This document shows positions 1 to 64,000 of a stretch of DNA of 64,000 bases, in pieces. Both the position numbers and the translations under genes were made by a program. The first letter of the stretch is position 1; every line of letters begins with the position of its first letter. Origin of the DNA: Deinococcales bacterium (GTDB lineage Bacteria; Deinococcota; Deinococci; Deinococcales; JAAFIG01). The notes beneath the pieces were generated by a model. The model had not been told where the DNA came from and made no database searches. It saw nothing but the letters and a program-made list of their open reading frames with translations. The DNA is taken from NCBI GenBank assembly GCA_043778225.1, contig JAYWGM010000063.1:17107-81106 (forward strand), written 5' to 3'.

Positions 1-1356
1 GTCTACAATATAAAAAAAACCATCTGTGTCCATCCGTCCCATATCGCCAGTCAGCAACCAGCGTTTGCCACCAATTTCTTTGATGCACTCGGCGGTTTCT
101 TCGGGGCGCTGCCAGTAGCCACGCATGACATGATGCCCAGCAATCGCAATTTCGCCAATGTCACCAATCGGCATTGGCTCGAGTTCGGGCGACAAAATAC
201 ACAGTTCGACTCCCGGTATTGGAATGCCGATGCTGCCAACACGGCGTTCACCTTTAATCGGGTTGTTGGTGGCGCACGGGCTGCACTCAGTTAGCCCATA
301 ACCCTCGAGCAGATGTCCACCACTCAGGCTTTCAAAAGTTCGTGCCACCTCGAGCGGCAAGGCTGCTGCGCCCGATAAGCACAGTTGGATACTCGAGAGA
401 TCGTATTTTTTAATTTCTGGGTGATTGTTGATTGCCACATACATGGTTGGCACACCGGGGAACATCGTCGGTTTGTGCTTGTGAATCGCCTCAAGCACAT
501 CTTTTACGACAAAGCGCGGCAGCAGCACAATACTGGCGGCGGCTTTAATTGCCATGTTCATAGCGACCGTCATGCCGTACACATGAAAAAATGGAATTAC
601 CCCAAGCATCACACCGGTAGCATCTGGCACACTTGTCCAACTCGAGGCACTGGTAACATTCGACATCAGATTGCGGTGTGTCAGCATTGCCCCTTTTGGT
701 GTACCAGTCGTGCCGCCAGTGTATTGTAACAGGGCTAAATCGTCTGGCAATACACTGGTTTTTGGGGCAGCACTCGAGACTGTTTTCTCGAGCAATTTTT
801 TGAATTGATAGATATAGGGTTCTGGCTTGACCTCGACCCAAGTGCCATCGCGCTTGGCTTTGACGGGATATAACATATTTTTTGGAAAGGCTAAAAAGTC
901 GGAAATTGTGGTCATGACCACGCGCTTGACCGGAACGCTGGCGGCAATCTCGCGGTAACGCGGATAAAATAGATTCAGCATTATCAGCGTTTCTGCTCCA
1001 GAATCCCGCAACTGATGCTCGAGTTCTCGAGCCACATAGAGCGGACTGGTGTTGACCACGACTGCGCCAAGCATCATTGTGCCAAAAAAGGCAATCACAA
1101 ATTGTGGACAGTTGGGCAGCATAATTGCCACACGGTCGCCTTTTTTAACACCTAAGCCTTCGAGTGAATTGGCAAAGCGTCGGGCGTTCTCGAGTAGGGC
1201 ATGATAGCTCATGGTGTAACCCAAAAACTCGAGCGCCATTCGTTCGGGAGCGCGTTTAGCAGCGCCTTCTAATAAGCTCTGAATTGGGCTTTCAGGGTAA
1301 ATCAGGCTTTTGGGAACGCCAGCGTCGTATTGGGAAAGCCAAGGGAATGGGGTCAT
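1..1356 (-). CDS. fadD: Long-chain fatty acid-CoA ligase (3' end runs off the window)
   Basis: Manual translation from ATG 1356: MTPFPWLSQYDAGVPKSL...GVKKGDRVAIMLPNCPQFVIAFFG...LQYTGGTTGTPKGAMLTH (AMP-binding motif); absent from the ORF track because its stop lies outside the window. Confidence 0.9.
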   Translation of the reverse strand, partial: MTPFPWLSQYDAGVPKSLIYPESPIQSLLEGAAKRAPERMALEFLGYTMSYHALLENARRFANSLEGLGVKKGDRVAIMLPNCPQFVIAFFGTMMLGAVVVNTSPLYVARELEHQLRDSGAETLIMLNLFYPRYREIAASVPVKRVVMTTISDFLAFPKNMLYPVKAKRDGTWVEVKPEPYIYQFKKLLEKTVSSAAPKTSVLPDDLALLQYTGGTTGTPKGAMLTHRNLMSNVTSASSWTSVPDATGVMLGVIPFFHVYGMTVAMNMAIKAAASIVLLPRFVVKDVLEAIHKHKPTMFPGVPTMYVAINNHPEIKKYDLSSIQLCLSGAAALPLEVARTFESLSGGHLLEGYGLTECSPCATNNPIKGERRVGSIGIPIPGVELCILSPELEPMPIGDIGEIAIAGHHVMRGYWQRPEETAECIKEIGGKRWLLTGDMGRMDTDGFFYIVD

Positions 1357-1446
1357 GAAAATACCTCGAGAGAAAGCAGCGTGGCAACGGGTCGAAGACT
1401 AAAAACTTACACTCAGTATAAGTTCTTTTTAGTAAAGTGCAAGTCT

Positions 1447-3036
1447 TTAGGGCAGTAAATTGGTGGCTAAACCAATCCGTATGTTGGGCAGGCGAATCAA
1501 ACGCAAAGCCGCATCGCTCGGTGTGTCCGAGTCCGAACCCACCAGCACCAATTGGCTTGGGTTGCTACTCGAGCTTAACGCCGTGGCTCGAGCCAAACTG
1601 GCATCGGTGTTTTCCAGAATCGCTCGTGAAACTCGAGTGGCGGTGTCGGTTGCCACCAAAAAACTAAGTTTGAACTTAAAAATTTTTGATAACGGGTCGG
1701 CTGGCACTAAACGTCGTGGAATTCTGACCGCTACACTGACCAGCCCAGTGCCACCAGCCGCAATGCTGCGGCTTGAGCCATTTTTAGCCACATAGGCATA
1801 GTCCAAGATATTTTCGGTGGCACTTAGCATCCCAGCACCTCGAGCGGCGGTCTCGAGGGCGGTACTTTCTGAGATTCGGTATGCCTGAAAATCCGAGGCT
1901 AAGTTGTCCGGCACGGGGGCGGTTGCACCAAGCTGCATACCATGTAAAGGCACAATCTGCTGCCCAACGCTGGAGTCAGTATAAAGTGCGCCATCTGGAT
2001 TATTGGCATCTGGAAAAGCCCGAATGTCAAAAGCGGCGGTCTGCCCGATGTTTCCAGACTTAAAAATTGCCCGTAAACTCAAGTTCTCGAGTGGCTGACT
2101 GCTGAGGTTGGTAATGCGGTAGGTGGCGGTCAAATAGCGCACGCCAGCCGCTACATAATCTATATCGCTGTAGGTTAAAGGTAAAAAACTGACCTGTCCG
2201 CTCGAGTCGGTCTCTGCATTGCGCTGACTGGTATCCCATGCCAAATTAACCAAGCCAAGGGCTGTACTTTGAAGGGCGGTACTCGAGACCAAAACCGTTT
2301 TGGTGACTGTTCCACCGTTGTTGCTGGCGGTTAAAGTAAAAATGGTGTTTTTGGCGACGTTGACTTGTACTGTACTACCAGTCACCACGCCAATATCTGG
2401 TGAAATACTCAGGGTTGTCGCACCAAGGGCAACCCACTCGAGCTTGACCAGTCCAGCCTCGAGATTGTCTGGCGTGGCGCTCAAACTCTGAATCACGGGT
2501 GCGGCATCCTGCACAAATATCCCAACGGTTTTTGTGGTTGTACCACCCGCTCCTACGGCTGTGAGCGTATAGGTTTTACTGGTATTGACACTGACCTCGA
2601 GACTGGTTTTACCAGTTACGTCGCTAATGCCGCCATCCATGCTTAGGCTGGTGCTGTTTTCGGTTGCCCAAGCCAAAGTGACCATACCGCCGCCAAAGGC
2701 AAGTGTGTTTGGGGTAGCGGTCAAACTCAAGATGGTTGGTGGGGCAGGGGCAACGGTCACTGCTACCGATTGATTAACACTGCCACCCGCATTGCTGGCG
2801 CTTAAAACAAAAATTGTGCTGCTCGAGATGATTAGGGTTTTTGAAGTTAAACCTGTCACATCTGTATCACCAAGACTCAAAGCCGTGGCGCGTTCGGTTG
2901 TCCACGATAGCAGCACCGCACCACCACCAAAAGGCAGACTGACTTTATCGGCGTTTAGACTCGAGATGACTGGCGGCTGAACTGGACAACCTACCAACAG
3001 TAAAACTAAACTTAGCATCGCAAAAAATCGCTTCAT
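1447..3036 (-). CDS. Lipoprotein with three Ig-like/PKD-like repeats and an uncharacterised C-terminal domain
   Basis: Lipobox LLVGC; three ~78-aa repeats (P.I.SL.A...G.V.L.W....T.LS...VTG....V...T..TLTA...GGT..KTV). Confidence 0.75.
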   Translation of the reverse strand: MKRFFAMLSLVLLLVGCPVQPPVISSLNADKVSLPFGGGAVLLSWTTERATALSLGDTDVTGLTSKTLIISSSTIFVLSASNAGGSVNQSVAVTVAPAPPTILSLTATPNTLAFGGGMVTLAWATENSTSLSMDGGISDVTGKTSLEVSVNTSKTYTLTAVGAGGTTTKTVGIFVQDAAPVIQSLSATPDNLEAGLVKLEWVALGATTLSISPDIGVVTGSTVQVNVAKNTIFTLTASNNGGTVTKTVLVSSTALQSTALGLVNLAWDTSQRNAETDSSGQVSFLPLTYSDIDYVAAGVRYLTATYRITNLSSQPLENLSLRAIFKSGNIGQTAAFDIRAFPDANNPDGALYTDSSVGQQIVPLHGMQLGATAPVPDNLASDFQAYRISESTALETAARGAGMLSATENILDYAYVAKNGSSRSIAAGGTGLVSVAVRIPRRLVPADPLSKIFKFKLSFLVATDTATRVSRAILENTDASLARATALSSSSNPSQLVLVGSDSDTPSDAALRLIRLPNIRIGLATNLLP

Positions 3037-3060
3037 GCCCTAGATTCTACAACCCAAAGG

Positions 3061-3840
3061 TTAAAACAAACCCTCGAGCTTGAACTTGCGCCCAGTCACA
3101 AATTCGAGTTGGGCGGATAAATGATGCGCCCTGATTTTTTTGTGCAGCACCACTTGCCCACCAATTCGCTCAAGCGCTACAGCTAAGGAACTTTCGCCAG
3201 CCACCTCGACCAAGGTGTGATAGGGCTGCAATAAACGTGGCTCGAGTCGCAGTTTGGCATCGCAAATCAGCAGTAAATCTGCCCGTTCTAAGGCTTCTAA
3301 TAACGCAGCTTCCTCGAGGCTGATACAGCGCACCACCACACCGGCTGGGGCGTGTTTAGCAAGGCGTTCGGCATGAGGACGGTCTGGGGCAGCAATCGTC
3401 AGGCTTTTGACCCCAGCGCGAGCCACTTGCACTGCCGCACTGGCACTTGCGCCACCGCCAAGCACCACGGCATTTGCCCCAAAACCACGGTATTTAATGC
3501 TCTCGAGGGCGGCTAATAAACCATCTTCTAAGGTGTGCGAGCCTTGTGTGCCGCGAGTCACACTGATGGCATCCAATGCCCCATCACGCTCGCTACTGCT
3601 CGAGAGACCATCCACCAAAGTCAGGGCTTCGGTACTTGCCCCACCAATAAAAACCGCCCCTAAGAAACCCAAAGGCTCGAGACCCTGCACCACCGCTCCA
3701 AGTTTGGCGCTGGTTGGCACAAGGGTCGGTAAAAACTGTGCCTCGAGTTTGTAAAGGGCGGTCACGATTGGGGCGGCTTCTGCGCCAAGAAACGCCACGG
3801 GTTTTAAGGTATTCATGTTCAATGGCAAGTATACGACCAT
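3061..3840 (-). CDS. Shikimate dehydrogenase-like protein, degenerate (start uncertain)
   Basis: AVVLGGGASA Rossmann motif and AroE-like layout, but no SxSP or NTD motifs. Confidence 0.55.
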   Translation of the reverse strand: MVVYLPLNMNTLKPVAFLGAEAAPIVTALYKLEAQFLPTLVPTSAKLGAVVQGLEPLGFLGAVFIGGASTEALTLVDGLSSSSERDGALDAISVTRGTQGSHTLEDGLLAALESIKYRGFGANAVVLGGGASASAAVQVARAGVKSLTIAAPDRPHAERLAKHAPAGVVVRCISLEEAALLEALERADLLLICDAKLRLEPRLLQPYHTLVEVAGESSLAVALERIGGQVVLHKKIRAHHLSAQLEFVTGRKFKLEGLF

Positions 3841-4069
3841 CCGCCTGTGTTGGATTGCAGGCGGTACTTTATGATTGTGGTCAACTCGAATATGATTTCG
3901 TAAAAATTTCGGTAGTACAGCTAGAAAGCATACAGACGATTGTTCAGAAATTGAGCTTTTGGTGTGTCTCGAGCTAATCTAGAAAGTGCGCCATAGCGTC
4001 TATTGGTCGGTCCAGTTGCGTTTAGTCTAAGCAATTTGCAGTATCCTATTGGTCTACGGAGGTTGGCTT

Positions 4070-4915
4070 ATGAAAATAAAACTTTTAGCGGCACTTGGCT
4101 TGGTTGGTATGACGGTACTTGGTTTTAGCTCTGGGGCGCAGAACATGACAAAATACGGCGATTGTACGATTACGGGCATGATGGGTTCGATGAAATTTAC
4201 ACCTGCGATTGCTGGGCAACTCACTGTCCAAACCAATTTGCCAAGCCCGGGTTTTTACAACGGCGACTCGCCAGAACTGGTCAAGAGCGGCGTTGAATAC
4301 TGCATGGCTGCCAACATCGCACATCGGGCGGGACTCGAGAAAGTGGTGGTTCAAAATGTCGCGTGGGACGGTTTGGTGGCTGGACAGACCAAAGATTTTG
4401 ACTTGGCAATGAGCCAAATTTCAATCACTGCCGAGCGCAAAAAAGTGGTCGAATTCAGCACGCCGTATTTCTCGAGCGACATTGGGGTATTGGTGCGTAA
4501 AGGCTTTAAGGTTGACGAAAAAAGTATCAAAACCGCCAAAATCGGTGTACAGCAAGGCACAACTGGCGAAAAATTTGCTCGAGAAACCTTAAAAATTAAA
4601 AACGTTAAGGTTTTCCCAGATACCCCCGGAATGTTTGTGGCGCTCCAAGCCAAACAAGTGGACATCGCCATGACCGACACCAGCATTGTTTTATCGCAAG
4701 CCAAGCAATCGGCTGGCAAGTTTGAAGTCGTTGGGCAGTACAAAACTGGCGAAAGCTACGGCGCATTGTTTCCAAAAGCTGGCAAAAATAACAAAGCCAT
4801 CAACACCATCCTGCAAGAAATGCTCAAAGATGGCACAGTCGCCAAACTCGTTGGGCAGTATCTCTCGAGCGAATGGGGCGTTGACCCACTGAAAATCAAG
4901 TATTTCAAACCTTAA
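4070..4915 (+). CDS. Polar amino acid ABC transporter substrate-binding protein
   Basis: GGAGG RBS, signal peptide, SBP_bac_3 motifs (ISITAERKKVVEFSTPYF, IGVQQGTT). Confidence 0.9.
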   Translation: MKIKLLAALGLVGMTVLGFSSGAQNMTKYGDCTITGMMGSMKFTPAIAGQLTVQTNLPSPGFYNGDSPELVKSGVEYCMAANIAHRAGLEKVVVQNVAWDGLVAGQTKDFDLAMSQISITAERKKVVEFSTPYFSSDIGVLVRKGFKVDEKSIKTAKIGVQQGTTGEKFARETLKIKNVKVFPDTPGMFVALQAKQVDIAMTDTSIVLSQAKQSAGKFEVVGQYKTGESYGALFPKAGKNNKAINTILQEMLKDGTVAKLVGQYLSSEWGVDPLKIKYFKP

Positions 4916-4921
4916 AAGCTC

Positions 4922-4988
4922 AGGTAAAAAGGGTAAAAGGTCAAAAGGATAAAAGTTTGACCTTTTTACCCTTTGACCTTTTACCCTT
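4922..4988. repeat. Octamer-based imperfect palindrome (AAAAGGKT-like units followed by TTTKACCC-like units)
   Basis: Inverted arrays of ~8-nt units between the SBP and permease genes. Confidence 0.7.
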
Positions 4989-4992
4989 CTCT

Positions 4993-6156
4993 ATGCTTCC
5001 AGACCGTTCAGCGCGTTTTCGCGCTCCAAGTATCCCCAAAAGCGCCATGCCTTTGTCGCTGGCAGCTTTACTTGTCTCGAGCCTGACGATGCTTTTTGCT
5101 TGGTCGGTGGTTTGGCAATTGGCGCTGGCATTGGCTGGCGTGACTGAAGAAAATGTGGCGGCAGCAGTCGAAAAAAACCTCTATTGGTTTTTGATGTGGT
5201 CTCGAGTCTCGGGTTTACCTTTTTTGGCTTGGGTGGGGCTGGTGGGGCTGGCGATTGTGCCACTTTTACTATTTATTCCAGCTTTTCGTGGGCTTTCTGC
5301 GGCGGCTCGAGCCAAAAATGCAAGACTTAAAGATGATTTAATCCTGGCTCGAGTCGAATCAGCCGACTCGAGTAATTCGGCTTGGTTTACCATCGGCTAT
5401 GCAGTTTTTGCACTTTTGGCTTTCTCGAGCATTGGTTTTATGATTGCCAAAGATGTGGCGGTTGGCAACACTTTTTTTAAGCTCGATTTGATGCTTTCTA
5501 AAGCCGGTTTGGTCGGACAAGCGTTTTTGACCAATGTTTTTATTTTTATGGTAGCGCAGGTTTTTATTCTGGTTTGGGCATTGATTGTGGCACTTGCCCG
5601 TATGATTCCGGGGTCAGCCGGTCAGCCGATTCGCTTACTGGCAACGCTTTATACCGATGTTTTTCGTGGGCTACCGAGTGTGATTACGATTTACCTGATT
5701 GGCTTTGGCTTGCCTTTAACTGGTTTTCCGATTCTTGGCGATTTATCACCAATTTGGTATGCGATTTTTGCCCTAATGCTAACTTACGGCGCATATGTTG
5801 CCGAAGTCTACCGCGCTGGCATCGAGAGCATTCACCCCAGCCAAATGATGGCAGCCCGCAGTCTGGGCTTAAACTTTTTTCAGACGATGCGCTTTGTGAT
5901 TGTGCCGCAAGCCATCCGCCGAATTATCCCGCCACTCTTGAACGACTTTATTGGACTGCAAAAAGACACGGCTTTGGTCAATGTCATCGGCACAATAGAT
6001 GCTTTTAATCAAGCGCGGATTTTGGCAAGTAATAATTTTAATTTAAGTACGGTTACGATTGTGGCAATTTTATTTGTGCTGATTACGATTCCTCAAGCCA
6101 GATTTGTAGACCGCTTACTCGAGCAAGACGCGGCTAAAACCCGAGGCGCAAAATGA
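4993..6156 (+). CDS. Amino acid ABC transporter permease with N-terminal extension
   Basis: [19 protein letters not shown] and AARSLG EAA-loop motifs; start uncertain. Confidence 0.88.
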
Positions 6157-6896
6157 GTTTTCTTGAAATGCGAAATGTACAAAAGCGCTTTGGGTCGCTC
6201 GAGGTGCTGCGTGGCTTAAATCTCAATGTCGAGGAGCATCAAGTGGTCTGCCTGATTGGACCGAGCGGCTGCGGCAAAAGTACCTTATTGCGCTGTATCA
6301 ACGGTCTCGAGCCGATAACTGGCGGCGAGATTCGGATTCTCGACGACCGCGTTTCTGGGGCTGGGGTGGATGTAGACCGCTTGCGGCGCGATGTCGGGAT
6401 TGTGTTTCAGAGCTTTAATTTGTTTCCGCACATGACCGTCCTCGAGAACATCTGTTTAGCCCCACGCCAAGTGCTGGGGCTGACCAAAGCCGAGTCCGAA
6501 GCTCGAGCCTTTGAACTGCTTGAGCGGGTGCAGTTGGCACAAAAAGCCAAAGCCTACCCCGACCAACTCAGCGGTGGGCAGCAACAACGGGTGGCGATTG
6601 CTCGAGCCTTGGCAATGCAGCCGATGCTGATGCTGCTCGACGAGATTACTTCAGCACTCGACCCAGAACTGGTGGCAGAAGTGCTTGACCTTGTGCGCGA
6701 CCTTGCAAGTGAGGGCATGACGATGTTGCTTGCGACCCACGAAATGGGTTTTGCCAAAGAAGTCTCGAGCAAGGTGTGTTTTTTATACGAAGGCGTGGTG
6801 CATGAAGAAGGCACACCCGAAGAAATTTTTAGCGCTCCAAAAGAAGAGCGAACCCAAGCCTTTTTGAAAAAGATTATCGAGGCTGGGAGGTTATAA
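6153..6896 (+). CDS. Amino acid ABC transporter ATP-binding protein (GlnQ-like)
   Basis: [38 protein letters not shown]. Confidence 0.95.
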
Positions 6897-6899
6897 ATT

Positions 6900-7091
6900 A
6901 TGGAGCTTACCAAGGCTCAAATCGAGCGCCAAGATTTTGTTGATTCACAGATTTTTGATTTATTGAATCAACTGAATACAACTGAAGTCAAACTCGAGTG
7001 GGACATTGAAATGATTGGCGACATTCGAGACAGCATTGAAGCGTGGCTCTTGGAGAAAGTCTCGCTTGAGCCACAAGAATTTTATCCGTAA
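6900..7091 (+). CDS. Small acidic hypothetical protein
   Basis: 63-aa ORF 3 nt after the ATPase, GGGAGG RBS, protein-like composition. Confidence 0.65.
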
Positions 7092-7095
7092 AGTC

Positions 7096-7917
7096 TTAAA
7101 AAATAGCTTTTGAACTTTGCTCGAGTGGTTCAATGCCTAGAAATTCGCGGTAGATTCGTTCTTTATACGGCAGCCCGATTTCATTGATGGCTTGGATAAA
7201 GGCTGCATATGTGCCAACACCACCAATTTTATCCCAGAACTCCGCGCCAATCAGCACCACAGGGTCTTGTCTCATGTCAAACCAACGGGCTGGGAATGTC
7301 CACGCATAATCGGTTTTTGCGCCATATGGATTGTACGGCAGGGCATAATAGGCAGCGTCTATCGGTTTATTGTCCATCGCAAAGAGCTTAAAAATTTTCT
7401 CTTTGCTTTGCTTGGTTTGGTCGCTATTTGGCAAGGGGGCTTTGAGTTCAAAAGCAAATCGCTCGCCTGTAGCTGTATCTTCGGTGCAAATATCACAAAC
7501 CACGGTCGCTGGTATCAGTTCGCCTTTTCCCTCGAGAATATAGTTAAGTTCGGTCTGCCAATTTGGTTTTTGGCGTTCGATGCCCACTTCTGGATGCTCG
7601 AGTTTGTTTAAGACCTCTTGGATTCGCTGCAACCTGCCCATTCTGATATTCCCGCGGATAGTGTGCTGTTGGAGGCACTTTCCTAAACCTTGTTCGGCTG
7701 CAACGGCAGCTAGTTTTTTCCAAATATCACTAAAATGCTCGAGAAACTTCTTTTGAAGGAATGCAGCTTTTCTGATTTCTAAAGGAAGAAAAGCATCAAA
7801 AAAAAGCCTGTTCTGTAGGCATTCAGTGCTTCCTAAAAACTCTTGTGTATCACAAGCAAGAAACTCTGTAAGTTGATTCTCAAGAGTCAAGAAAAACTTG
7901 TCTTTGAGTTTAGACAT
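7096..7917 (-). CDS. TdeIII-family type II restriction endonuclease (no adjacent MTase)
   Basis: PD-(D/E)xK-like core VVCD...AFELKAPLPNSDQTKQSKEK, YYALPYNPYG, VLIGAEFWDKIGG, recognised as TdeIII family. Confidence 0.75.
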   Translation of the reverse strand: MSKLKDKFFLTLENQLTEFLACDTQEFLGSTECLQNRLFFDAFLPLEIRKAAFLQKKFLEHFSDIWKKLAAVAAEQGLGKCLQQHTIRGNIRMGRLQRIQEVLNKLEHPEVGIERQKPNWQTELNYILEGKGELIPATVVCDICTEDTATGERFAFELKAPLPNSDQTKQSKEKIFKLFAMDNKPIDAAYYALPYNPYGAKTDYAWTFPARWFDMRQDPVVLIGAEFWDKIGGVGTYAAFIQAINEIGLPYKERIYREFLGIEPLEQSSKAIF

Positions 7918-7968
7918 ACTTTTTCCGTAAACAGTCTAATCGCATCTGGCGTTATGATAACACACGAA

Positions 7969-8721
7969 TCACTTGACTTTAATTTCAAACAGCTTATCCC
8001 AAAGTTTGCCCGTCACAAAAATACGCTTGGTCTTGGCATCGTATGCAATGCCATTCAACACTGAATCCGAATTGCCAAGGGTATTTTCTGGGCGTAAACC
8101 CACCAAGTTGATAAAGGCTTTGACTGCACCCGTTTTCGGGTCAATTCGAGCAATCAAGTCGGTCTGCCAGATATTCGCCCAAATTTCGTTATCTATCCAC
8201 TCGAGTTCGTTGAGGTTGCGGATTTCCGAGCCAGCATTGCTGACTGTAATCGTGCGTAAAACCTTAAAAGTATTTGGCTCGAGAAAATAAATTTGGTCTG
8301 TGCCGTCGGACAAGACCAAATTTTTACCATCGGTGGTTAAGCCCCAGCCTTCGGTTTGGTAGCCGCGTGTTGCCTCGAGCTTAAAAGTGCTGGCGTTGTA
8401 GACAAAGGCTTTTTTACTTGTCCAAGTCAGTTGGTATAATTTGTCGCCAAGCCAAGCCAAGCCTTCGGCAAAAACGCTCGAGTCGACGGCTTGGCTGCGA
8501 AGCACTTTTCCATCCAAGCTGGTTTGGCGCAGACTGCTTGTGCCGTAACCGCCACTGCTTTCATAAAAACCGCTACCATTCCAGACCAAGCCCTGTGTAT
8601 AGGATTTTGGGTCATGGCTATGGGTTTTAAGCACCGTATAGCCTTGCAAGGCGGCTCGAGGGGCTTGACTATATGAACTCGGGAGCAGCGCCAAGACCAG
8701 CACAGCCAAAAATCGTTTCAT
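7969..8721 (-). CDS. Glutaminyl-peptide cyclotransferase (beta-propeller type)
   Basis: HDPKSYTQGL, FAEGL, EGWGLT, LNELEWI, VLNGIAYD; signal peptide; TAGACT 7 nt before ATG. Confidence 0.9.
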   Translation of the reverse strand: MKRFLAVLVLALLPSSYSQAPRAALQGYTVLKTHSHDPKSYTQGLVWNGSGFYESSGGYGTSSLRQTSLDGKVLRSQAVDSSVFAEGLAWLGDKLYQLTWTSKKAFVYNASTFKLEATRGYQTEGWGLTTDGKNLVLSDGTDQIYFLEPNTFKVLRTITVSNAGSEIRNLNELEWIDNEIWANIWQTDLIARIDPKTGAVKAFINLVGLRPENTLGNSDSVLNGIAYDAKTKRIFVTGKLWDKLFEIKVK

Positions 8722-8767
8722 GTTGCTCAGTCTAACGCTTACGGCATGACCAATGGATGAAGGCAAC

Positions 8768-9454: not shown

Positions 9455-9531
9455 GGCTCTATTGTACTCTTAAAAATCAAAAGGCAAACGTCTTATCACT
9501 TGGCTAAGCCATTTGGGTTAGGCTACTGCCC

Positions 9532-48924: not shown

Positions 48925-48934
48925 ATTCTCGAGC

Positions 48935-54867: not shown

Positions 54868-54901
54868 TAGACATCATCTCTAAAGTTGTTTAAGGTGAAC
54901 C

Positions 54902-55324: not shown

Positions 55325-55371
55325 TGCGTCTCGAGCTATTGAGCCAGTTGCACGGGTTAGCTTGCGCCTCG

Positions 55372-55465
55372 TATACTCGAGCCATGAGTCGGAAGTCATG
55401 GCGAATGCCAAGGTGCGCCCTGCAACCCTAGTGCTTTTTCTCGAGGGTCGGGCGGGGCGTTTTTT
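55372..55465 (+). promoter_or_regulatory. Candidate metG leader/attenuator
   Basis: TATACT -10; hairpin GCCATGA/TCATGGC; GC-rich hairpin 55415-55460 plus T-run ~30 nt before metG. Confidence 0.55.
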
Positions 55466-55497
55466 ACGCCTCGTTTTTTAGTTTTACAAAGGAATCT

Positions 55498-57435
55498 ATG
55501 AATAAAACTTTTTATGTCACTACCCCGATTTATTATGTCAATGACGTGCCACACTTGGGTCATGCTTATGCCACCTTGGTTGCCGATACCTTAGCGCGGT
55601 ATCACCGATTGGCGGGCTATGACACCTATTTTTTAACCGGCACGGACGAACATGGCGAAAAAATCTGGAAGGTTGTCCAAGCCCTTGGGCGCGAACCTCA
55701 AGAATTTGTCGATGAAATCTCGGAGACTGGTTTCAAAGCCCTCTGGAAGCGTTGGGGCTTAACCAACGACGACTTTATTCGCACCACCCAATCGCGCCAT
55801 ATTGAGTATGTGCAGCGTATTTTGCAGCGTTTATACGATGCGGGCGATATTTACTTTGCCGAGTATGAAGGCTTATACAGCGTTGGCTCGGAGCGCTATG
55901 TGACCGAAAAAGAACTGATTACGGGCGCAGATGGTCTAAAACGCATTGCTGGCGACCGCGACCCGCCGGAGTTGCGCCGCGAAGCCAATTATTTTTTTAA
56001 GCTCGAGAAATACCGCCCATGGCTGATTGAATACCTCGAGACCCACCCAAATTTAATTGAACCGATAACTTATCGCAATGAAGTTATGGAAATGCTTAAA
56101 GAACCAATTGGCGACCTTTCGATCTCGAGACCAGTCGGGCGTTTGCCGTGGGGCATTCCGATTCCTTGGGATGTCGGCGATGTGACTTATGTTTGGTTTG
56201 ATGCGCTCCTAAATTATGTTTCGGCATTGGGCGGCGAAGGCAGCCCCAAATTCGAGCAATACTGGCGCAGTGCGTGGCACTTGGTCGGTAAGGATATTCT
56301 TAAAACCCATTCGGTCTTTTGGCTGCCAATGCTCCACGCGGCTGGCTTACCGATTTACGAAAAATTGGTGGTTCACGCCCATATTTTGGGGTTTGATGGT
56401 CGAAAAATGGGTAAGAGCCTAGGCAACGCCGTAGACCCAGTCGAAATGGAAGAAAAATATGGCATTGATGCCTTGCGCTATGCCTTGCTGCGCGAAACCA
56501 CTTTCCAAGCCGACAGTGCCTTTGGCGAAAAAATTCTGGTCAACCGCTTAAATTCAGACCTTGCCAACGACCTTGGGAATTTGTTGTCTCGGGTGCTTTC
56601 GATGCTCGAGAAATTTAACGCTGGTATTATCCCCACTCCAGACGTTTTCGAGGCTCGAGAAGAAGGTATCAAAGCGGCGGCGCTGCAATTACCAGTCACG
56701 GTTCTTGAAGAAGTTCGCGGCTTGCGGTTTCATATTGCGATCGAGCGCATCATGGAATTTGTGCGTGACCTAAACCGTTATGTGGCAGAAACCAAACCGT
56801 GGGAACTGGCAAAACTTGAAGATAAAAAACGCCTCGATACCGTCTTGTACACCCTTGTCGAAGGAATCCGTGTGGCTTCGGTACTGCTCGAGCCAGTTAT
56901 TCCTAACCAAGCTAAAGAAATTCGTAAGCAGCTTGGACTTGAAGCCTTTTATGTTCTCGAGCCAGCTTGGGGACTTGCCAAAAGCGGCAGCCAGATTGCG
57001 CCGGCTAATGTTTTATTCCCAAAAGTAGAAATTAAGGAGCTTGCCATGTCCGACATCATCAAACCACCAGAGCCAGCCGCCCAAGAAGTACCAGTTCTCG
57101 AGCCAATAGAGTTTATTGGCATCGAAGATTTTGCCAAAGTTCAATTGCGGGTCGCCGAAGTCCTCGAGTGCGAAAAAGTGCCAAAAGCCGATAAGCTCTT
57201 AAAGCTCACCGTGGCGCTTGGCGATGAGCGGCGCACGATTCTTTCGGGAATTGCCGAGTATTACAGCCCCCAAGAAATGGTCGGTAAGCGCGTTGTGGTG
57301 GTGGCAAACCTTGCGCCACGCAAAATGCGTGGTATCGAGAGCCAAGGCATGATTCTGGCTGCCACCGACGAAAATGGTAAAGTCGTGATTGTCAGTCCAG
57401 AGCGACTTGTGCCAAGTGGGGGAGAGGTTCGCTGA
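55498..57435 (+). CDS. metG: Methionyl-tRNA synthetase with C-terminal tRNA-binding domain
   Basis: TTPIYYVND.PHLGH, TGTDEHG, YVWFDAL, KMGKS, Trbp-like C-terminus. Confidence 0.97.
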   Translation: MNKTFYVTTPIYYVNDVPHLGHAYATLVADTLARYHRLAGYDTYFLTGTDEHGEKIWKVVQALGREPQEFVDEISETGFKALWKRWGLTNDDFIRTTQSRHIEYVQRILQRLYDAGDIYFAEYEGLYSVGSERYVTEKELITGADGLKRIAGDRDPPELRREANYFFKLEKYRPWLIEYLETHPNLIEPITYRNEVMEMLKEPIGDLSISRPVGRLPWGIPIPWDVGDVTYVWFDALLNYVSALGGEGSPKFEQYWRSAWHLVGKDILKTHSVFWLPMLHAAGLPIYEKLVVHAHILGFDGRKMGKSLGNAVDPVEMEEKYGIDALRYALLRETTFQADSAFGEKILVNRLNSDLANDLGNLLSRVLSMLEKFNAGIIPTPDVFEAREEGIKAAALQLPVTVLEEVRGLRFHIAIERIMEFVRDLNRYVAETKPWELAKLEDKKRLDTVLYTLVEGIRVASVLLEPVIPNQAKEIRKQLGLEAFYVLEPAWGLAKSGSQIAPANVLFPKVEIKELAMSDIIKPPEPAAQEVPVLEPIEFIGIEDFAKVQLRVAEVLECEKVPKADKLLKLTVALGDERRTILSGIAEYYSPQEMVGKRVVVVANLAPRKMRGIESQGMILAATDENGKVVIVSPERLVPSGGEVR

Positions 57436-59755
57436 CAAAAAAGCGTCTTTCTAGCCATTGATAAGCTGTGTCTGAATTGGCTGGCGCGGCAAAAATATAG
57501 CCTTGAATCGCATCGCATTGAAGGCGTTGTAACTGCTCGAGTTGTTTTTTGGTTTCGACTCCCTCGACAATCAGCCGTAAGCCTAGGGTTTTGGTCAGCG
57601 CCACGATGGCTTCGAGCAAAGCCCCAGAATTTTCTTGCTGCATAAAAGTCTGTGCGATTTTCAGGCAATCTATTGGTAAGCGATGCAAATATGCCAAGTT
57701 TGAATAGCCAGTCCCAAAATCATCAATCGCAATTGAAATACCTATCTGACGCAAGTGCGTTAAACTCTGGGCGATGTGCGGTTGGGCAAGCGCATCCTCG
57801 AGCAGTTCGATTTGTAAAAATTTTGGCTCGAGCTTGTGCAGTGCTAGGTTTTCTTTAATCAAGCGCAGCAATTCTGGCTTTCCGATGTCTGCCATCGGGA
57901 TATTGACCGAAACTGGAACAAGCACCAAGCCCATGGTGCGCCATTTTTGTTGCTGGGTACAAACCGTTTCAATTACCCAATTGGTGATTGAACCCATCAG
58001 CCCGCTTTCTTCGGCAACAACAATAAATTCGCCAGGCGAGACCAGACCAAGCTGAGGCGAATTCCAACGCAGCAAGGCTTCAAATGACTCGAGCTGCCCA
58101 GATTGGGTTGCGACAATCGGCTGATAATGGAGGCTCAGTTCGTGCTGGCTAATGGCGTTGCGTAAACACTGTTCAAGTTCAAAACGGCGCTCGAGTTGGG
58201 ATCGAATCTGTGGATTAAAAACCTCGATTCGTCCTCTGCCAAGGTGTTTGGCGGTGTACATTGCGGCATCGGCATGGCGTTGCAGGGTCTCGGCATCTGT
58301 GCCATCTTCGGGTGACTGACTGATACCTAGACTGGCACTGATCGAAAACTCAAGTTTTGAATGTTTGAATGGTTGTTCGAGGGCTTGCAAAATGTTGCGA
58401 GCAATTTGCCGAGCTATTTTTTTCTCGAGCAAGACGACCACAAACTCGTCACCACCGGTTCGAGCCACAAGACTCTGGTTTGGACTGGTCTTTTGAACCC
58501 GTTGGGCGACTTCTTGCAGCAAATAATCGCCAATTTGATGTCCTAGGGTATCGTTGATTTGCTTAAAACCATCAAGGTCAATAAACAAGACCGCCACTTG
58601 GTAGAGCGGCAGTATTTCCTCGAGTTGTTTTTGTAATAAAACCCGATTGGCAATTCCAGTCAGGGCATCGTGGGTTGCATTCCACTCGAGTTGTTGTGTG
58701 CGTTCAATGACGCGCTGCTCGAGACTTTCGGAGAATTGTAGCAATTGGCTGTTTAAGTACCGATTCTCAATAAACATCAGAATTTGGCGCAGCAAGACCA
58801 GAATAACCACCAGCAGCACACCAATGTTTAAGCCCAAATGTTGTACCTCTGGCATGGATTTATGGTCAGAAAAAATATAGAAACTGACCAACATAAAGCC
58901 AGCAAACAAAGGAGCGCTCATCATAAAAATTGAACCCAAGACCCATCTGTTTTTCGTGGGTTTATTTTCAGGTTGTGCTGTGGGCTGGATATGCCAGTAA
59001 GCGGCGCAACCAAGACAAACCGAAGACCACCCCCAAGCACTATCAAAAACACCAATTTGAGTCTCTGTGCCATAAGCGCTTTGGAAAGCAAAGCCAAGGT
59101 CGGCAATCGTTAAAAATAAGATGCCAGCAAAAAGCCAAAGTAGTTCTTGGCGAATGGCGGCATTGTTGGGGCGCAAAACCATAAATAAAATAATCGTCAG
59201 GAGTATCACTGCCCCAATTGGATAGGTGATCGAAACCAAAAAAGCCAAGGGAGCTTCGCCTAACGTCAGCATTTGTGCAATTAGATAATACCAAAGTAAT
59301 GTTCCGAGGCTTGAAATGACGATGCCAATGTTGAGCAGTAAACGGATAAACTCGAGACGGGTAAAAGTAAAATTTGGCAAATAAAATAAACCAATTGCCA
59401 AGAGTGGAAGACTGGCAATATAAAATACGTCCACCAAGGAAGGATAGGGGTCTAGCTGCAATACCGATTGCAAGATAATCCAAATCCCATCACCTATTCC
59501 AAAGCAAAACAGTGCTATGGCGATAAACCACCATGTCTGTTTGAGCCATGTTTTTTGCAGCGCCACCCGAGTGCATAAGAGTCCAGCCAAGATCGAACTG
59601 GGGAGAATCAAAAGGTCATTGATCAGACTGGCACGGGTGTCCTCGGGCGGATGTGGCAGAATCACCCATATTTGGCTAATCAAGGCAACAATAAAGAGCA
59701 ACCCAAATAGAATTGTACTGATGCGGTCTCGAGACCAGATAAAAGTCATACGCAA
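57392..59755 (-). CDS. Membrane-bound GGDEF/EAL protein
   Basis: Many N-terminal TM helices, GGDEF, EALLRW, DDFGTGYS. Confidence 0.92.
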   Translation of the reverse strand: MRMTFIWSRDRISTILFGLLFIVALISQIWVILPHPPEDTRASLINDLLILPSSILAGLLCTRVALQKTWLKQTWWFIAIALFCFGIGDGIWIILQSVLQLDPYPSLVDVFYIASLPLLAIGLFYLPNFTFTRLEFIRLLLNIGIVISSLGTLLWYYLIAQMLTLGEAPLAFLVSITYPIGAVILLTIILFMVLRPNNAAIRQELLWLFAGILFLTIADLGFAFQSAYGTETQIGVFDSAWGWSSVCLGCAAYWHIQPTAQPENKPTKNRWVLGSIFMMSAPLFAGFMLVSFYIFSDHKSMPEVQHLGLNIGVLLVVILVLLRQILMFIENRYLNSQLLQFSESLEQRVIERTQQLEWNATHDALTGIANRVLLQKQLEEILPLYQVAVLFIDLDGFKQINDTLGHQIGDYLLQEVAQRVQKTSPNQSLVARTGGDEFVVVLLEKKIARQIARNILQALEQPFKHSKLEFSISASLGISQSPEDGTDAETLQRHADAAMYTAKHLGRGRIEVFNPQIRSQLERRFELEQCLRNAISQHELSLHYQPIVATQSGQLESFEALLRWNSPQLGLVSPGEFIVVAEESGLMGSITNWVIETVCTQQQKWRTMGLVLVPVSVNIPMADIGKPELLRLIKENLALHKLEPKFLQIELLEDALAQPHIAQSLTHLRQIGISIAIDDFGTGYSNLAYLHRLPIDCLKIAQTFMQQENSGALLEAIVALTKTLGLRLIVEGVETKKQLEQLQRLQCDAIQGYIFAAPANSDTAYQWLERRFFVSEPLPHLAQVALD

Positions 59756-59800
59756 GGTCAGTGTATCAAAATAATGAATAGAACCTTGGTCATTTTATAC

Positions 59801-59835
59801 AGAAAAAAGCGCATTCTTTAAGAATGCGCTTTTCT
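59801..59835. terminator. Terminator after the BMP gene
   Basis: AAAAGCGCATTCTT-T-AAGAATGCGCTTTT. Confidence 0.88.
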
Positions 59836-59848
59836 ACTTCAAATTGAT

Positions 59849-60967
59849 TTATTTATCAGCCACGTCGAGTTGACCGTTAATGATACGAGCCTTAGCTGAT
59901 TCAACACCTTTGATTGTGTCTGCCGAAATCAGGACTTCGTTGTATTGGTCTAGAGCATAGCCAACGCCACTGTTGTCTAAACCAAATTCTTGTACGCCCT
60001 TAACCCAAGGACGGTTTTGGGCAATGCCACGAATTAAGTTAAAGACTGCCAAGTCTACGCGCTTGAGCATACTGGTCAAGACATAGTTCATGGTCTTTGG
60101 GTTCTTGTCTGAATCGCCCAAGTAGTTTTGGTTGCTGTCCACGCCAATAAAGAACATTGGGCGGTCGGTGGTCTTGCATTTTGCAGTGTAATCGCTTGGC
60201 TTTGCTACGGTACGAATCGCCGCGATGGCTGGTTTGAGCTTAATGCCAGCTGGTGGCTTTGTGCCACTGATGCACTTGGTATCCATCACGTATTTCAAAG
60301 CGCCAGCGCCCGATGCTCCGGCAGCAGCATAGATAATGTCTGCGCCTTTTGCACCTTGAGCCGCCGCAATTTCTCGAGCTTTGGTTGGGTTGTTCCAGGC
60401 TTCTGGGGTTGTGCCAGTGTAGTTCTCGATCGTGGTGCAAGTTGGGCAAGCGGCTTTGACACCAGCATTAAAGCCAGCGTAGAACTTACGAATCAAAGGA
60501 ATTTGCATACCACCAACAAAGCCAATCACGCCAGTGCTGCTGGTTTTACCGGCGATATAACCAACCAAAAAGCTACCTTCGTGTTCGCGGAAAACCGCAC
60601 CACTTGTGTTATCGCCAGTTGGCACATCGTCAATCACGGCAAATTTAACGTCTTTGAACTCGGCGGCTGTTTTGGTAATGCTGGCTTGGTTAGCAAAGCC
60701 GACACCAATCACCAAATCAAAACCAGCTTCGGCAAAGGCACGGATACCAGAGCCAACTTGGCTTGGGTCAGATGGCTCGAAGTCTTTGACTTCAACACCA
60801 AATTGCTTAGCGGCGCGGGTTGCACCTTCAAAAGCACTCTGGTTAAAGCTCTTGTCGTTCTTTCCACCAGCATCGAATGCCATACCTACACGGACGGGTT
60901 GTTGTGCGGTTGTCAAGCCGAATGCGAGCATCGCGGCAACTGCACTTAAAGCCATTGCTTTCTTCAT
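59849..60967 (-). CDS. BMP family (nucleoside) ABC substrate-binding protein
   Basis: GGKNDKSFNQSA, FREHEGSFLVG, IGVDSNQ, SMLKRVD. Confidence 0.92.
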   Translation of the reverse strand: MKKAMALSAVAAMLAFGLTTAQQPVRVGMAFDAGGKNDKSFNQSAFEGATRAAKQFGVEVKDFEPSDPSQVGSGIRAFAEAGFDLVIGVGFANQASITKTAAEFKDVKFAVIDDVPTGDNTSGAVFREHEGSFLVGYIAGKTSSTGVIGFVGGMQIPLIRKFYAGFNAGVKAACPTCTTIENYTGTTPEAWNNPTKAREIAAAQGAKGADIIYAAAGASGAGALKYVMDTKCISGTKPPAGIKLKPAIAAIRTVAKPSDYTAKCKTTDRPMFFIGVDSNQNYLGDSDKNPKTMNYVLTSMLKRVDLAVFNLIRGIAQNRPWVKGVQEFGLDNSGVGYALDQYNEVLISADTIKGVESAKARIINGQLDVADK

Positions 60968-61107
60968 AAATCCTCCTAAAACTTTGCGGGTAGTACCCGA
61001 GACGGATTATGGCATTTATCAAGGCGATTTGTATACGGATTAAATTTTAAGACTGGTTTCATGATTGGCTTAGGCGGCTTTGAGTCTCGAGCTAGGGGTC
61101 AATTTTC

Positions 61108-61174
61108 AGCTGCTTGCCCATCTGGTAAGTGGTTAGCTGCTTGCCCATCTGGTAAGTGGTTAGCTGCTTGCCCA
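61108..61174. repeat. 27-bp tandem repeat x2.5 copying the stop codon of the B12-binding gene
   Basis: AGCTGCTTGCCCATCTGGTAAGTGGTT units. Confidence 0.95.
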
Positions 61175-61570
61175 ACGCGCCAAGACTTTTTGCTCGAGAA
61201 ATGCCACCACATCTTGGGTGCTTGTGCCGGGTGTAAATAAGCCATCTACCCCAAGTTCCTCGAGTTTGGGAATATCCACATCTGGAATAATTCCACCACC
61301 AAACAGCAGAATATCGGTGGCTTGGCGTTGCCCAAGGAGTGCGCGAATTTCCCGAAAATAGTGCATATGCGCTCCACTTAGCACCGATAAGCCAATGGCA
61401 TCGACATCTTCTTGCACTGCTGCGTTGACAATCATTTCGGCAGTTTGGCGTAAACCCGTGTAAATCACTTCCATGCCAGCATCTCGCAAGGCTCGAGCAA
61501 TGACTTTAGCACCACGGTCATGTCCATCTAAGCCCGGTTTGGCAATCAAGACGCGAATTTTTCTTTCCAT
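61160..61570 (-). CDS. Methylmalonyl-CoA mutase C-terminal B12-binding subunit
   Basis: [26 protein letters not shown]. Confidence 0.93.
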
Positions 61571-61641
61571 AGTTGTAGAGTCTAACAGGAATTGCAGTAT
61601 TTCTTACGGCGTGTTTCTAAAAGGGCTGCTAAAATACAATC

Positions 61642-62118
61642 ATGAAAAATCTTTGGCTGGTGGTTGGGGCGGGCAGTCTTCTTGGCTTAGCAAGCGCACA
61701 GACAGCGTATGTGGATGTGCCACCGTGTCACTGGGCAGTTACCGCCATCAATACCGTCTCGGCTGGCGATCGGGTCACACCGAGTCAAAATGCCAGCAAT
61801 GCTCAAAATGCGGTGCGTCAAGTTTTTGAAGGCATCCAGTGCGGCGACCCTGCTTGGGTACAAAAATTTATGACCGATGCTCCAAACAGCTTAGCAGCGC
61901 TGGTCTCGAGTAAACCAGTAAAAGGTTATCAACTGACTTTTGGGCGCACGCTGGTCTCTGGTAAAAATGCCAGTGTGGCGGTCAATCTGAGCTTAACCCT
62001 AGGTACTGGGGTACAAAAACGCAGTGGGGTGTTGACCCTCTCGAGCGACGAAAAAGCCGCTTGGCGGGTTGGCTATGCCTCACTTTCGGCTTTGAACTTG
62101 GTGGTTTTCCCAAAGTAA
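61642..62118 (+). CDS. Secreted hypothetical protein
   Basis: Signal peptide; SLH-like YVDVPPCHWA. Confidence 0.7.
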   Translation: MKNLWLVVGAGSLLGLASAQTAYVDVPPCHWAVTAINTVSAGDRVTPSQNASNAQNAVRQVFEGIQCGDPAWVQKFMTDAPNSLAALVSSKPVKGYQLTFGRTLVSGKNASVAVNLSLTLGTGVQKRSGVLTLSSDEKAAWRVGYASLSALNLVVFPK

Positions 62119-62215
62119 AGCCAGAAGTGGCAATCTTTATCGTTCGAGTGTTTCTTAACATAAGTTGTAGTACGTGAAACAATTCTCGAGCTAAAAACAA
62201 GCTACAATACCAACC

Positions 62216-62866
62216 ATGATAAGAATTTTGCTGGCAGATGACCATGCCCTCTTTCGCCAAGGCTTAAAAAGCCTGCTCGAGACCGAAGACGACCTGCGGG
62301 TTATCGGAGAAGCTCAAACTGGACGCGAAGCGGTGCGCTATGCCGCCGATACCAAGCCAGATGTGATTTTGATGGATATTCAAATGCCAGAATTGGATGG
62401 GGTCAAAGCCACCCAGAGCATCCTCGAGATTAACCCAAACGCTAATGTGATTATCCTGACGATGTACCGCCAAGATAGTTATGTCTTTGAAGCCGTCAAA
62501 GCCGGAGCGCGAGGCTACTTACTCAAAGATGTGGATTCGACGGCGCTGATAGCTGCGATTCATCAAATTTATGAAGGTGGCACACTCCTAGACCCCGAGA
62601 TGGCAAAAAATGTCCTCGAGGATTTCCGAGTCAAAAAAGAATCCCTGCCCGACGAGAACCGAGGCGATTTAACCGAACGCGAAGCCGCCATCCTGCGCTT
62701 GTTGGCGCAAGGCTCGAGCAACCAAGAGATTGCCTTAAAGCTCAATATCTCGGAAAAAACCGTGCGAAACCGCTTATCGGAAATTTTTGCCAAGTTACAA
62801 CTCAATAACCGTACCCAAGCTGCCCTGTATGCCATCCGCGAGGGCTTGGCGAGCCTTGACGGTTAA
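62216..62866 (+). CDS. NarL/LuxR-family response regulator
   Basis: [22 protein letters not shown]...SNQEIA..L.ISEKTV. Confidence 0.95.
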
Positions 62867-62881
62867 GGTAAGCTGCCAGCC

Positions 62882-63343
62882 ATGAATTCAAAAGTTGGAA
62901 TTGCAGTCTTGATTATCGTGTTGGTGCTGGCTGTGGCGTTGGTTTTGCGCCCAAGTTCTGGCGTACCTGTGGTCAGTAAACCTGCCGAACTCAAAGTAGA
63001 CCTGGCTGTTCTGGCGGCGGCAAAAAAAGCCTCCGAAGCCAGCACCAAGCAGTCGAATGCCGTCCAAGCCAACGCCCTAAAAGTGGCTGCCGATGCTCAG
63101 CCATCACTCGAGGGCTATAGTTTTTTGACCGAGACTTCAGAATTGATACTTTCGTACAGCGTCAATTTTGACCCTCAACAAAACGGCGGCAGCACCGAAA
63201 AATTTGCGGCAGCGCTCGCCAAAAACTGGCGCATCAAAGAACTCGAGGTCTACAAACCCAAAAAAGTAACAATCTTGTTTTACGGCACAAAAGACCGCAT
63301 CAAAGCCAGTCGCTCGTTTAGTCCAAGTGGCAAACCGCTTTAG
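62882..63343 (+). CDS. Membrane-anchored hypothetical protein
   Basis: N-terminal TM helix; TAAGCT 7 nt before ATG. Confidence 0.65.
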
Positions 63344-63810
63344 GGTTGGCTGCGCCAATCGCCGCTTTTGCCGCCCGTTTTATCGAGCAAGCGCACCAGT
63401 CGAATCTCGATGCCTTTGCTGGCGGCTTTGAGCATATCGTAGACCGTTAAGGCTGCCACACTGGCAGCCGTCAATGCCTCCATTTCGACCCCAGTTTGGG
63501 CAGAAGTCCGAGCGGTGGCTAAAATCCGTACACCATCTTCGGTGCGGTTTACTTGGACTTCGACACTCGAGAGACTGAGCGGGTGGCACAGTGGAATCAG
63601 GTTGGCGGTTTGCTTTGCGCCTATGATTCCCGCCAGTTGCGCCACTGCCAGCACATCGCCTTTGCCAACCCCGCCAGTATCCAAGGCTTCTCGAGCCGCT
63701 TGTGGCAGCCAAACCAAGGCTTCGGCGGTGGCGGTTCGTAAGGTGGTGGCTTTGCTCGAGACATCGACCATGATTGGTGTGCCGTTCTTAAAATGGGTCA
63801 GGGTAGACAT
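63340..63810 (-). CDS. moaC: Cyclic pyranopterin monophosphate synthase
   Basis: LTHF...[36 protein letters not shown]. Confidence 0.96.
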
Positions 63811-63865
63811 GGTTTATCCTTTTGGATAGTTTTTTCTAGTTGGCATTGTGATTCGTGAAAGTATT

Positions 63866-64000
63866 CTATGGTTTTAGAATATCTGCATACAAACCAAGAC
63901 CGGGGTATCTCCAACGTGGATTAACCACCTCACGATATTCTGGTTTTGCAAGTTCTTGCCATTTTGCGATCACAACAGCTGATTTTGATTCAAGCCATAA
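63866..64000 (-). CDS. 3' end of an unknown CDS entering from the right edge
   Basis: Open frame LWLESKSAVVIAKWQELAKPEYREVVNPRWRYPGLGLYADILKP*. Confidence 0.35.
   Translation of the reverse strand, partial: LWLESKSAVVIAKWQELAKPEYREVVNPRWRYPGLGLYADILKP

Follow-up and report, generated by a model that had tools for sequence, protein, structure and literature searches.

Throughout a 64,000-nucleotide stretch of DNA from a Deinococcales bacterium (GenBank assembly GCA_043778225.1, contig JAYWGM010000063.1, positions 17,107 to 81,106 of the forward strand; the whole stretch is referred to as the window), the palindrome CTCGAG is repeated at a density far above that expected by chance. The host is an uncultured relative of Deinococcus, and CTCGAG is a counterpart of the unexplained highly iterated palindrome HIP1 of cyanobacteria: the enrichment is real and works like that of HIP1, yet comes without the methylase and G-methyl-C features of HIP1. 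The window contains 411 copies, with 6–20 per 2 kb over its full length, compared to about 15, 9 or 29 expected from Markov models of order 0, 1 or 2, respectively, and to 5–15 copies in each of ten dinucleotide shuffles. A first-pass annotation made from the sequence had counted about 25 copies in the first 3 kb and described a similar density across most genes; we found exactly 25, and the density indeed persists along the window.

178..63760, no strand: CTCGAG array of 411 copies, the first at 178 and the last at 63755, with a mean spacing of ~155 bp, in all reading frames and in spacers.

1..3000, no strand: stretch counted by the first-pass annotation, 25 copies, 8.3/kb.

The assembly to which the window belongs (G000, 89% complete) contains 24,877 copies in 4.03 Mb (6.2/kb), distributed over 107 of 107 contigs at densities of 4.0–10.6/kb. 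The observed/expected ratio (O/E) in G000 was 27, 47 and 15 at orders 0, 1 and 2, and reached 73 at order 2 after masking of the word; at the maximal order (order 4) it was only 1.16 because CTCGAG dominates its own 5-mers. The runner-up among the palindromic hexamers had an O/E of 1.9. All four bases were common in the flanks, including the 5' side, both in the window and in G000, indicating that the unit is the hexamer itself. Spacers of 20–300 bp carried 6.4 copies per kb (O/E 37) and the tRNA and tmRNA genes 6 copies in 5.7 kb; an rRNA motif was not found in the G000 assembly. Most other palindromes are strongly avoided in G000, with an O/E of 0.01 for GGCC (2 sites in the window), 0.2 for GATC and 0.3 for CCGG, and values below 0.1 for approximately half of the palindromic hexamers. 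The sets of avoided palindromes differ between G000 and its relatives G003, G006 and G013.

In the 2,967 genes of G000 used for frame counts, which were called with a custom script, CTCGAG occurred 12,522, 4,096 and 4,237 times in the three frames, compared to ~1,570, 355 and 300 times after shuffling of synonymous codons. CTC GAG was the spelling of 12,522 of 17,972 Leu-Glu pairs (70%), where background codon use predicts 2%, and neither CTC nor GAG is used often elsewhere in the genes. In two frames, the log-odds for the word over context-matched codon use were 3.6 and 4.2. The fraction of Leu-Glu realised as the word was 0.73 in the 50 most expression-like genes and 0.70 in the bulk, and codon preference is thus overridden even in highly expressed genes. 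An artefact of codon use, dipeptide frequency or composition has practically no probability left. In its favour, 60% of the coding sites lie in the Leu-Glu frame, and Leu-Glu is mildly in excess in an unenriched relative as well (LE/EL 1.49 in 20 kb), so that part of the Leu-Glu excess in G000 (2.33-fold, compared to 0.97 for Glu-Leu) is ordinary. It is nevertheless refuted by the counts for frames, spacers and codons, because frames 1 and 2 are at 11–14 times the shuffles, spacers have an O/E of 37 and CTC and GAG are rare outside the word. The earlier description of CTCGAG as present in all frames and in intergenic DNA therefore stands, and neither an O/E near 1 nor a restriction of the enrichment to the Leu-Glu frame was observed.

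The word also reaches into protein sequence. Residues inside it were more conserved between G000 and its relatives (Leu 0.92, Glu 0.87) than those outside (0.87 and 0.82), and where the partners differed from Leu-Glu they had LD, LQ, LA, IE, FE or VE. Among the non-site states, transitions one step away from the word were enriched (CTTGAG 3.5, CCCGAG 2.9); the size of this enrichment varies with the background chosen, but near-matches were not depleted. No peak of CTCGAG was present around 2,883 gene starts or stops, and a role as promoter, ribosome binding site or terminator was rejected. The 81 genes with less than 40% GC contained 114 copies instead of 268 expected, whereas low counts in genes of native GC content reflect a lack of opportunity. 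A presumably ssb-like gene (G000 C92:10796-11689) realised 0 of 8 opportunities, which is not significant among 2,617 genes. Three genes in the window illustrate the range:

23059..26346, minus strand: core gene ileS, 31 copies (9.4/kb), part of the region with which orthologous stretches of relatives were located.

36468..38087, minus strand: pgi, 13 copies (8.0/kb).

59849..60967, minus strand: gene of native GC content, a single copy in 1.1 kb, and no more than 3 positions that permit the word synonymously.

Pgi of the window has its best named relative in a metagenome-assembled genome of Deinococcus sp. (70% identity), which places the genome. In a survey of 301 genomes of the order, in which relatives are coded G for genomes, g for genera and f for families, all 19 genomes of the family were enriched, with 4.3–6.8 copies per kb or one CTCGAG every 150–230 bases, and a masked O/E of 24–78 in sampled stretches. 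Several related genera had 1.4–3.6 copies per kb; moderate enrichment was found in g13, g22, g24, several genera of f2 and genome G285 of family f3, with masked O/E values in such stretches of 11.8 (G285), 8.7 (G042), 4.9, 4.1, 3.2 and 2.3. G285, a single f3 genome outside g7, has 3.6 copies per kb, with 76% of Leu-Glu spelled as the word, in an otherwise unenriched family. Genus g7 (86 genomes) had less than 0.3 copies per kb and g9 (32 genomes) 0.6–1.6, close to the reversed control. We infer that g7 is Deinococcus-like, g13 Meiothermus-like and g9 Thermus-like, the last because TaqI occurs in g9 only. The suggestion that a highly iterated palindrome exists in a non-cyanobacterial lineage is supported for the Deinococcales, as all 19 family genomes carry CTCGAG in this way.

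Orthologues were compared in 324 pairs covering ~685 kb of five relatives. At Leu-Glu pairs conserved between G000 and G003, 486 of 623 sites were kept (0.78), whereas the value for CTC and GAG codons serving as controls was 0.12; of 240 non-sites in G000, 92 were sites in G003. The comparison with G006 gave 233 of 307 sites kept, 46 of 117 non-sites occupied and a control value of 0.07. Against the near-saturated G013, the respective values were 169/379 (0.45) and 46/124 (0.37), and their convergence in a saturated pair indicates that the correlation of sites is inherited. A mutational bias towards gain combined with neutral loss would erase the correlation at such a distance, hence the loss of sites must be slowed. 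Conservation across orthologues, which had been proposed as a check, is thus borne out. Sites are retained and newly fixed far above the neutral level, and judged from these comparisons, the force on CTCGAG appears to be a fixation bias. We infer a selection-like process, such as biased conversion or molecular drive, that would act when DNA is taken up by transformation or when genome copies recombine. Synonymous identity near sites was higher by 0.04 and 0.02 within 10 bp, similar to some control bins, and not altered beyond; a protection of nearby DNA by the sites was rejected, as divergence was not lower beyond 10 bp. Strain polymorphism had no power, since the two runs, from one study, were nearly identical to the window, and the polarisation of site changes in triplets comprised only 17 gene sets. 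At positions 12092-12198 of the window, run X2 contained a second full-depth contig with 15 listed differences beside an identical copy, which is more likely a paralogue or derived from another organism than an allele.

CTCGAG copies that lie close together suppress one another; the effect is strong below ~20 bp and weak up to ~150 bp. Gaps shorter than 15 bp occurred at 0.3–0.4 of the geometric expectation, gaps of 40–60 bp at expectation and gaps of 60–200 bp in excess; in the window, 18 gaps of at most 17 bp compare to ~32 expected. Leu-Glu was spelled as the word in a fraction of 0.28 when another site was 9–11 bp away, but of ~0.8 when the nearest was more than 80 bp away, and a within-gene permutation agreed with the short-range suppression. 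In a model controlling for flanks and GC content (n = 9,029), the change in log-odds per extra site was –1.95 at 7–11 bp, –1.58 at 12–17 bp, –0.82 at 18–24 bp, –0.54 at 25–40 bp, –0.41 at 41–70 bp, –0.18 at 71–160 bp and –0.05 at 161–250 bp. Interference, shown mainly in coding DNA, was reproduced in G013 and in G003 and G006 combined, and near-matches interfered weakly (–0.33 ± 0.12). Generic inverted hexamers were avoided at 6–14 bp only (0.56–0.77), so that hairpins can explain part of the shortest range but nothing from 15 bp onwards. Between 6 and 600 bp, the spacing profile was flat beyond ~100 bp, and no periodicity was found from 30 to 600 bp, neither helical nor nucleosome-like.

Mobile DNA shows the word as well. 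The sole CRISPR array of G000 (C80:1-2750, locus L137; 44 repeats, spacers of 31–34 bp) has CTCGAG in 10 of 43 spacers, compared to 0.28 sites predicted by composition and 7.3 by the host rate, and the spacers matched nothing elsewhere in G000. The Meiothermus phage MMP17 carries 87 copies in 33,172 bp (O/E 6.0; 8 copies of the reversed control), and 33 of 58 Leu-Glu pairs in its 13 long genes are spelled as the word. Two terminase loci in family genomes had 6–7 copies per kb; terminase relatives were only 25–36% identical over long matches. A scan of viral contigs for triple sites revealed no family-like phage among the 80 loci listed with flanks. For the 1 of 43 spacers scanned in viral contigs, no target was found. 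Together, spacers and MMP17 fit a force that acts on any DNA inside the host. A prophage remnant in G000 (C79:1234-4851) contains a tape-measure-like gene related to that of MMP17 and has host-level CTCGAG density, and in MMP17 itself an annotated Vsr-like endonuclease adjoins a D12-class methylase (L243 26062-27388). One locus of the window stands out by its scarcity of sites:

26591..28728, minus strand: PtuB/PtuA-like defence pair, GC content 0.37–0.41, 4 copies only, with the longest gap of the window (1,307 bp from 27534).

The two genes probably form a Septu-type defence locus with a PtuA/PtuB-like pair of ATPase and HNH nuclease, each of which falls short of its NCBIfam cut-off. Because of its low GC content, the locus is likely recently acquired DNA that would not yet have gained the word.

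Our leading, though tentative, explanation is that a putative sequence-specific protein gives alleles with CTCGAG a fixation advantage when copies of DNA recombine in the cell. Such a protein would bind CTCGAG over a presumed physical footprint of roughly 20 bp, alleles bearing the word would be favoured during transformation or recombination between genome copies, and a second site inside the footprint or the associated patch would add nothing. Since the advantage per site persists at 6 sites per kb, it must act over at most 150 bp; this range and the word in phage DNA favour a bound protein and a short patch over uptake of kilobase fragments. The competence genes of the family, with ComEC in 18 of 19 genomes and ComEA and a PilX-type pilin in G000, and the signs of heavy DNA traffic speak for this explanation as well. 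As parallels, two uptake sequences of Haemophilus influenzae within 100 bp give no added uptake according to the accessible part of PMC7811141, and HIP1 raises transformation, as far as the available text of Kamoku and Nielsen goes (10.1101/2024.09.10.611283). Several points weigh against this explanation. No recogniser protein was found, and ComEC is common, occurring in 10 of 14 controls and also in unenriched Thermus and Deinococcus. Polyploidy reportedly occurs in T. thermophilus but is only presumed for the family, and drive and weak selection on the organism look alike in sequence statistics. The GC content of G013 differs from that of G000, so that it provides an imperfect saturation baseline. 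In the weakly enriched relatives, the data (n = 252) did not resolve any interference, the intergenic dip is weak and noisy (4.2–4.8 copies per kb at 6–11 bp compared to 5.1–11.7 in other bins), and avoidance of inverted repeats explains part of the interference at the shortest range. Targets of the C80 spacers were found neither in the phage collection nor among the retrieved loci, and the part of PMC7448439 at hand does not state whether MMP17 is temperate.

We favour biased recombination or conversion inside the cell over a chromosome-coating protein, the latter over an uptake signal, and an uptake signal over a methylation ratchet. If CTCGAG were the site of a coating or protective protein, each non-overlapping bound site would confer a small fitness benefit and weak selection would fill the genome. 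This somewhat unlikely alternative fits the same data on retention and interference, and agrees with the even coverage without any tie to gene starts, stops or expression; near-matches that are mildly enriched and interfere weakly are what degenerate binding would give. The absence of any periodicity or helical phase speaks against it, and the host-like density in phage DNA and spacer targets is harder to account for. An uptake signal read at the level of the pilus or ComE, which would accumulate by uptake bias like DNA uptake sequences (DUS) and uptake signal sequences (USS), is improbable in our view. Competence genes are conserved, with ComEC in 18 of 19 family genomes and ComEA, PilT-like ATPases and pilins including a PilX-type in G000. 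Enriched near-matches and the depletion in the low-GC genes agree with such a signal, as do the absence of enrichment in the Thermus-like genus and the non-specific uptake of T. thermophilus (accessible part of PMC6561018). However, at 6 sites per kb each kilobase fragment has several, so that an uptake advantage should saturate, whereas the benefit ranges over at most 150 bp, and phage DNA does not enter via the pilus.

The candidate receptor for uptake has a mixed record. The PilX-type pilin of G000 was present in 24 of 26 genomes of the enriched g13, but in none of the 32 genomes of g9 and in 2 of the 86 of g7, and the distribution of this PilX/ComZ-like pilin follows the enrichment in f5 and in a part of f2. 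The body of the pilin was missing, however, in the enriched genomes G013, G009, G285 and G062 and present in five unenriched f3 genomes, and the match to ComZ had an E-value of 0.26 only; as sole receptor the pilin is doubtful. Its genes form a cassette outside the window:

G000 C86:6151-11597 (L421, L424), strand not given: pilin cassette with a 1,107-aa PilX-type tip pilin and three pilins behind it.

The tip pilin occurs in 14 of 18 family genomes with ~1,050–1,200 aa and 41–53% identity and is longer than its relatives outside the family. Genus g3 has another PilX-type frame of ~1,870 aa with only the N-terminus in common (G013 C1 near 2002500, L457; G009 C11 near 14600, L458). The cassette realised 9 of 40 opportunities compared to 21 expected, but a general depletion of CTCGAG in pilus and competence genes was dismissed, as the scarcity mostly reflects a lack of Leu-Glu (35 of 81 opportunities in nine genes compared to 44.7 expected).

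The first-pass annotation had considered a recombination or uptake signal, which would be in line with our leading explanation, and an origin by methylation or repair, which was not supported. Searches with four Pfam families in G000 and 5 of 18 relatives, with a PaeR7I-type query over 301 genomes, with local profiles and motifs and for a TaqI-type methylase revealed no methylase common to the whole family; the searches did not extend to further kinds of modification, phosphorothioation among them. Some 20 methylase genes are present in G000, often next to restriction-like genes, which together with the avoidance of palindromes suggests heavy DNA traffic. The single-contig genome G013 had only 5 methylase matches, none of them an orthologue of a G000 gene (best 25–33% identity). 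A PaeR7I/XhoI-type methylase, taken as specific for CTCGAG because it adjoins an XhoI-family gene in L031, had matches of at least 44% identity in 16 of the 301 order genomes, in 15 of them without an XhoI-family nuclease, but in 0 of 19 family genomes, where 4 of 19 had weak matches of 26–31%. In g13, the density of CTCGAG was the same in 6 carriers (2.25/kb) and 20 non-carriers (2.06/kb, p = 0.30). The nucleases XhoI, BsoBI and TaqI were each detected in 0 of 19 family genomes, and a role as restriction target was rejected because the cognate nuclease was not found and CTCGAG is enriched rather than avoided. Vsr was not found in G000, the only genome searched for it. AddA gave no match over the cut-off in 151 genomes of the order and one weak partial match among the 19 family genomes (RecBC was not searched), and RadC was found in 0 of 151 genomes. 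Side observations on these loci were that in L029 and L030 of family f4, XhoI-family nuclease genes stand tail to tail with the gene of a TSPPY-type methylase of 340 aa that is not of the PaeR7I type, that the XhoI-family nuclease of L031 is split in two frames, and that genes at G000 C9:8129-8868, C40:11129-12299 and C99:52968-53510 are situated near methylase loci. These genes presumably resemble the XisH/XisI and Uma2 families, both of which are common in cyanobacteria.

These results bear on a methylation-directed repair ratchet as in the Elhai model, in which a CTCGAG methylase, missed or since lost, would make and protect sites. Solitary PaeR7I/XhoI-type methylases do exist in the order, G000 is incomplete, and the model predicts saturation near existing sites, as described in the accessible part of PMC4390886. 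Nevertheless, the ratchet is the least likely of the four: the methylase is absent from all 19 family genomes including the single-contig G013, whose few matches lack G000 orthologues, density in g13 does not depend on it, and no Vsr was detected in G000. Near-matches are enriched, divergence is not lower beyond 10 bp from the sites, and CTCGAG lacks a GC step and consequently the G-methyl-C step of the Elhai model.

HIP1 (GCGATCGC) and the alternate HIPs GGCGCC, GCsGC and rCCGGy are described for cyanobacteria in the accessible parts of PMC4390886, PMC5861425 and PMC13756078. Like HIP1, CTCGAG is a short palindrome that is spread genome-wide independently of frame, is kept by a selection-like force and resides in a host with competence genes; it differs in phylum and word. 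Its density of 6,200 per Mb compares to 500–2,500 per Mb for HIP1 and most alternates (available text of PMC4390886; the CGATCG core was not compared), and the short-range mutual exclusion seen here is not described for HIPs in the portions at hand of PMC4390886, PMC5861425 and PMC13756078. HIPs generally have a cognate methylase, whereas none was found for CTCGAG in the family. Among the properties that define HIPs, CTCGAG shows genome-wide over-representation, occurrence in all frames and in non-coding DNA and conservation in orthologues, but not a cognate orphan methylase or a G-methyl-C step.

The DUS of Neisseria and the USS of Pasteurellaceae are longer than CTCGAG and non-palindromic. 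With them CTCGAG shares accumulation by point changes, depletion in new DNA, close pairs that would add nothing and compatibility with molecular drive, whereas USS are spaced by ~1,000 bp (accessible part of PMC7811141) in comparison to 6 CTCGAG per kb. DUS and USS form terminator pairs; CTCGAG has no peak after stop codons, avoids close pairs and has no receptor that we could find. Chi sites of RecBCD and AddAB are over-represented self marks tied to recombination and are present in phages too. In contrast to Chi, CTCGAG is palindromic and far denser, and AddA did not exceed the cut-off in the order genomes searched. An orphan methylase with the same hexamer is known from Nocardia, where the sites are concentrated around dnaA and their occurrence follows that of the methylase according to the part of the study available to us (Blow 2016, PMC4752239), whereas sites are uniform here and the family lacks this type of methylase. 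The main text of PMC13756078 (Rodriguez-Cruz 2026) contains neither CTCGAG nor Deinococcus, and nothing bearing on CTCGAG enrichment was contained in the accessible parts of PMC8112702 and the Nanomotif preprint. We found no published description of CTCGAG enrichment, in a search that did not extend to most subscription papers and all supplements, including methylome tables.

To our knowledge, 30 years of work have not yielded a mechanism for HIP1, and every test is confounded by the association with methylases. The order described here offers a comparable word in another phylum, for which no methylase was found, and a strength that is graded within one order, from 4–7 copies per kb in the family through 1.4–3.6 in several genera to no enrichment in Thermus-like and Deinococcus-like genera, with a sequenced phage of an enriched genus that carries the word. 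Any proposed mechanism has to account for the physical length scale set by the interference curve, and HIP1, DUS and USS can be examined for such a curve as well. A force at the DNA level that overrides codon preference and alters protein sequence also matters for analyses of codon use and selection in these genomes. A wider scheme, which we regard as possible but rather doubtful as a whole, would be a methylase-independent, sequence-specific drive or self-marking in the Deinococcales, in which a predicted protein, its footprint ~20 bp and its patch ~100–150 bp long, would fix CTCGAG alleles in any intracellular DNA, phages included, and thereby rewrite ~10,000 dipeptides. Such a system would either stem from the ancestor of the order or be widespread within it, and Thermus and Deinococcus would have lost it. 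If this were true, Thermus and Deinococcus would represent natural knock-outs and may open a route to the HIP1 problem.

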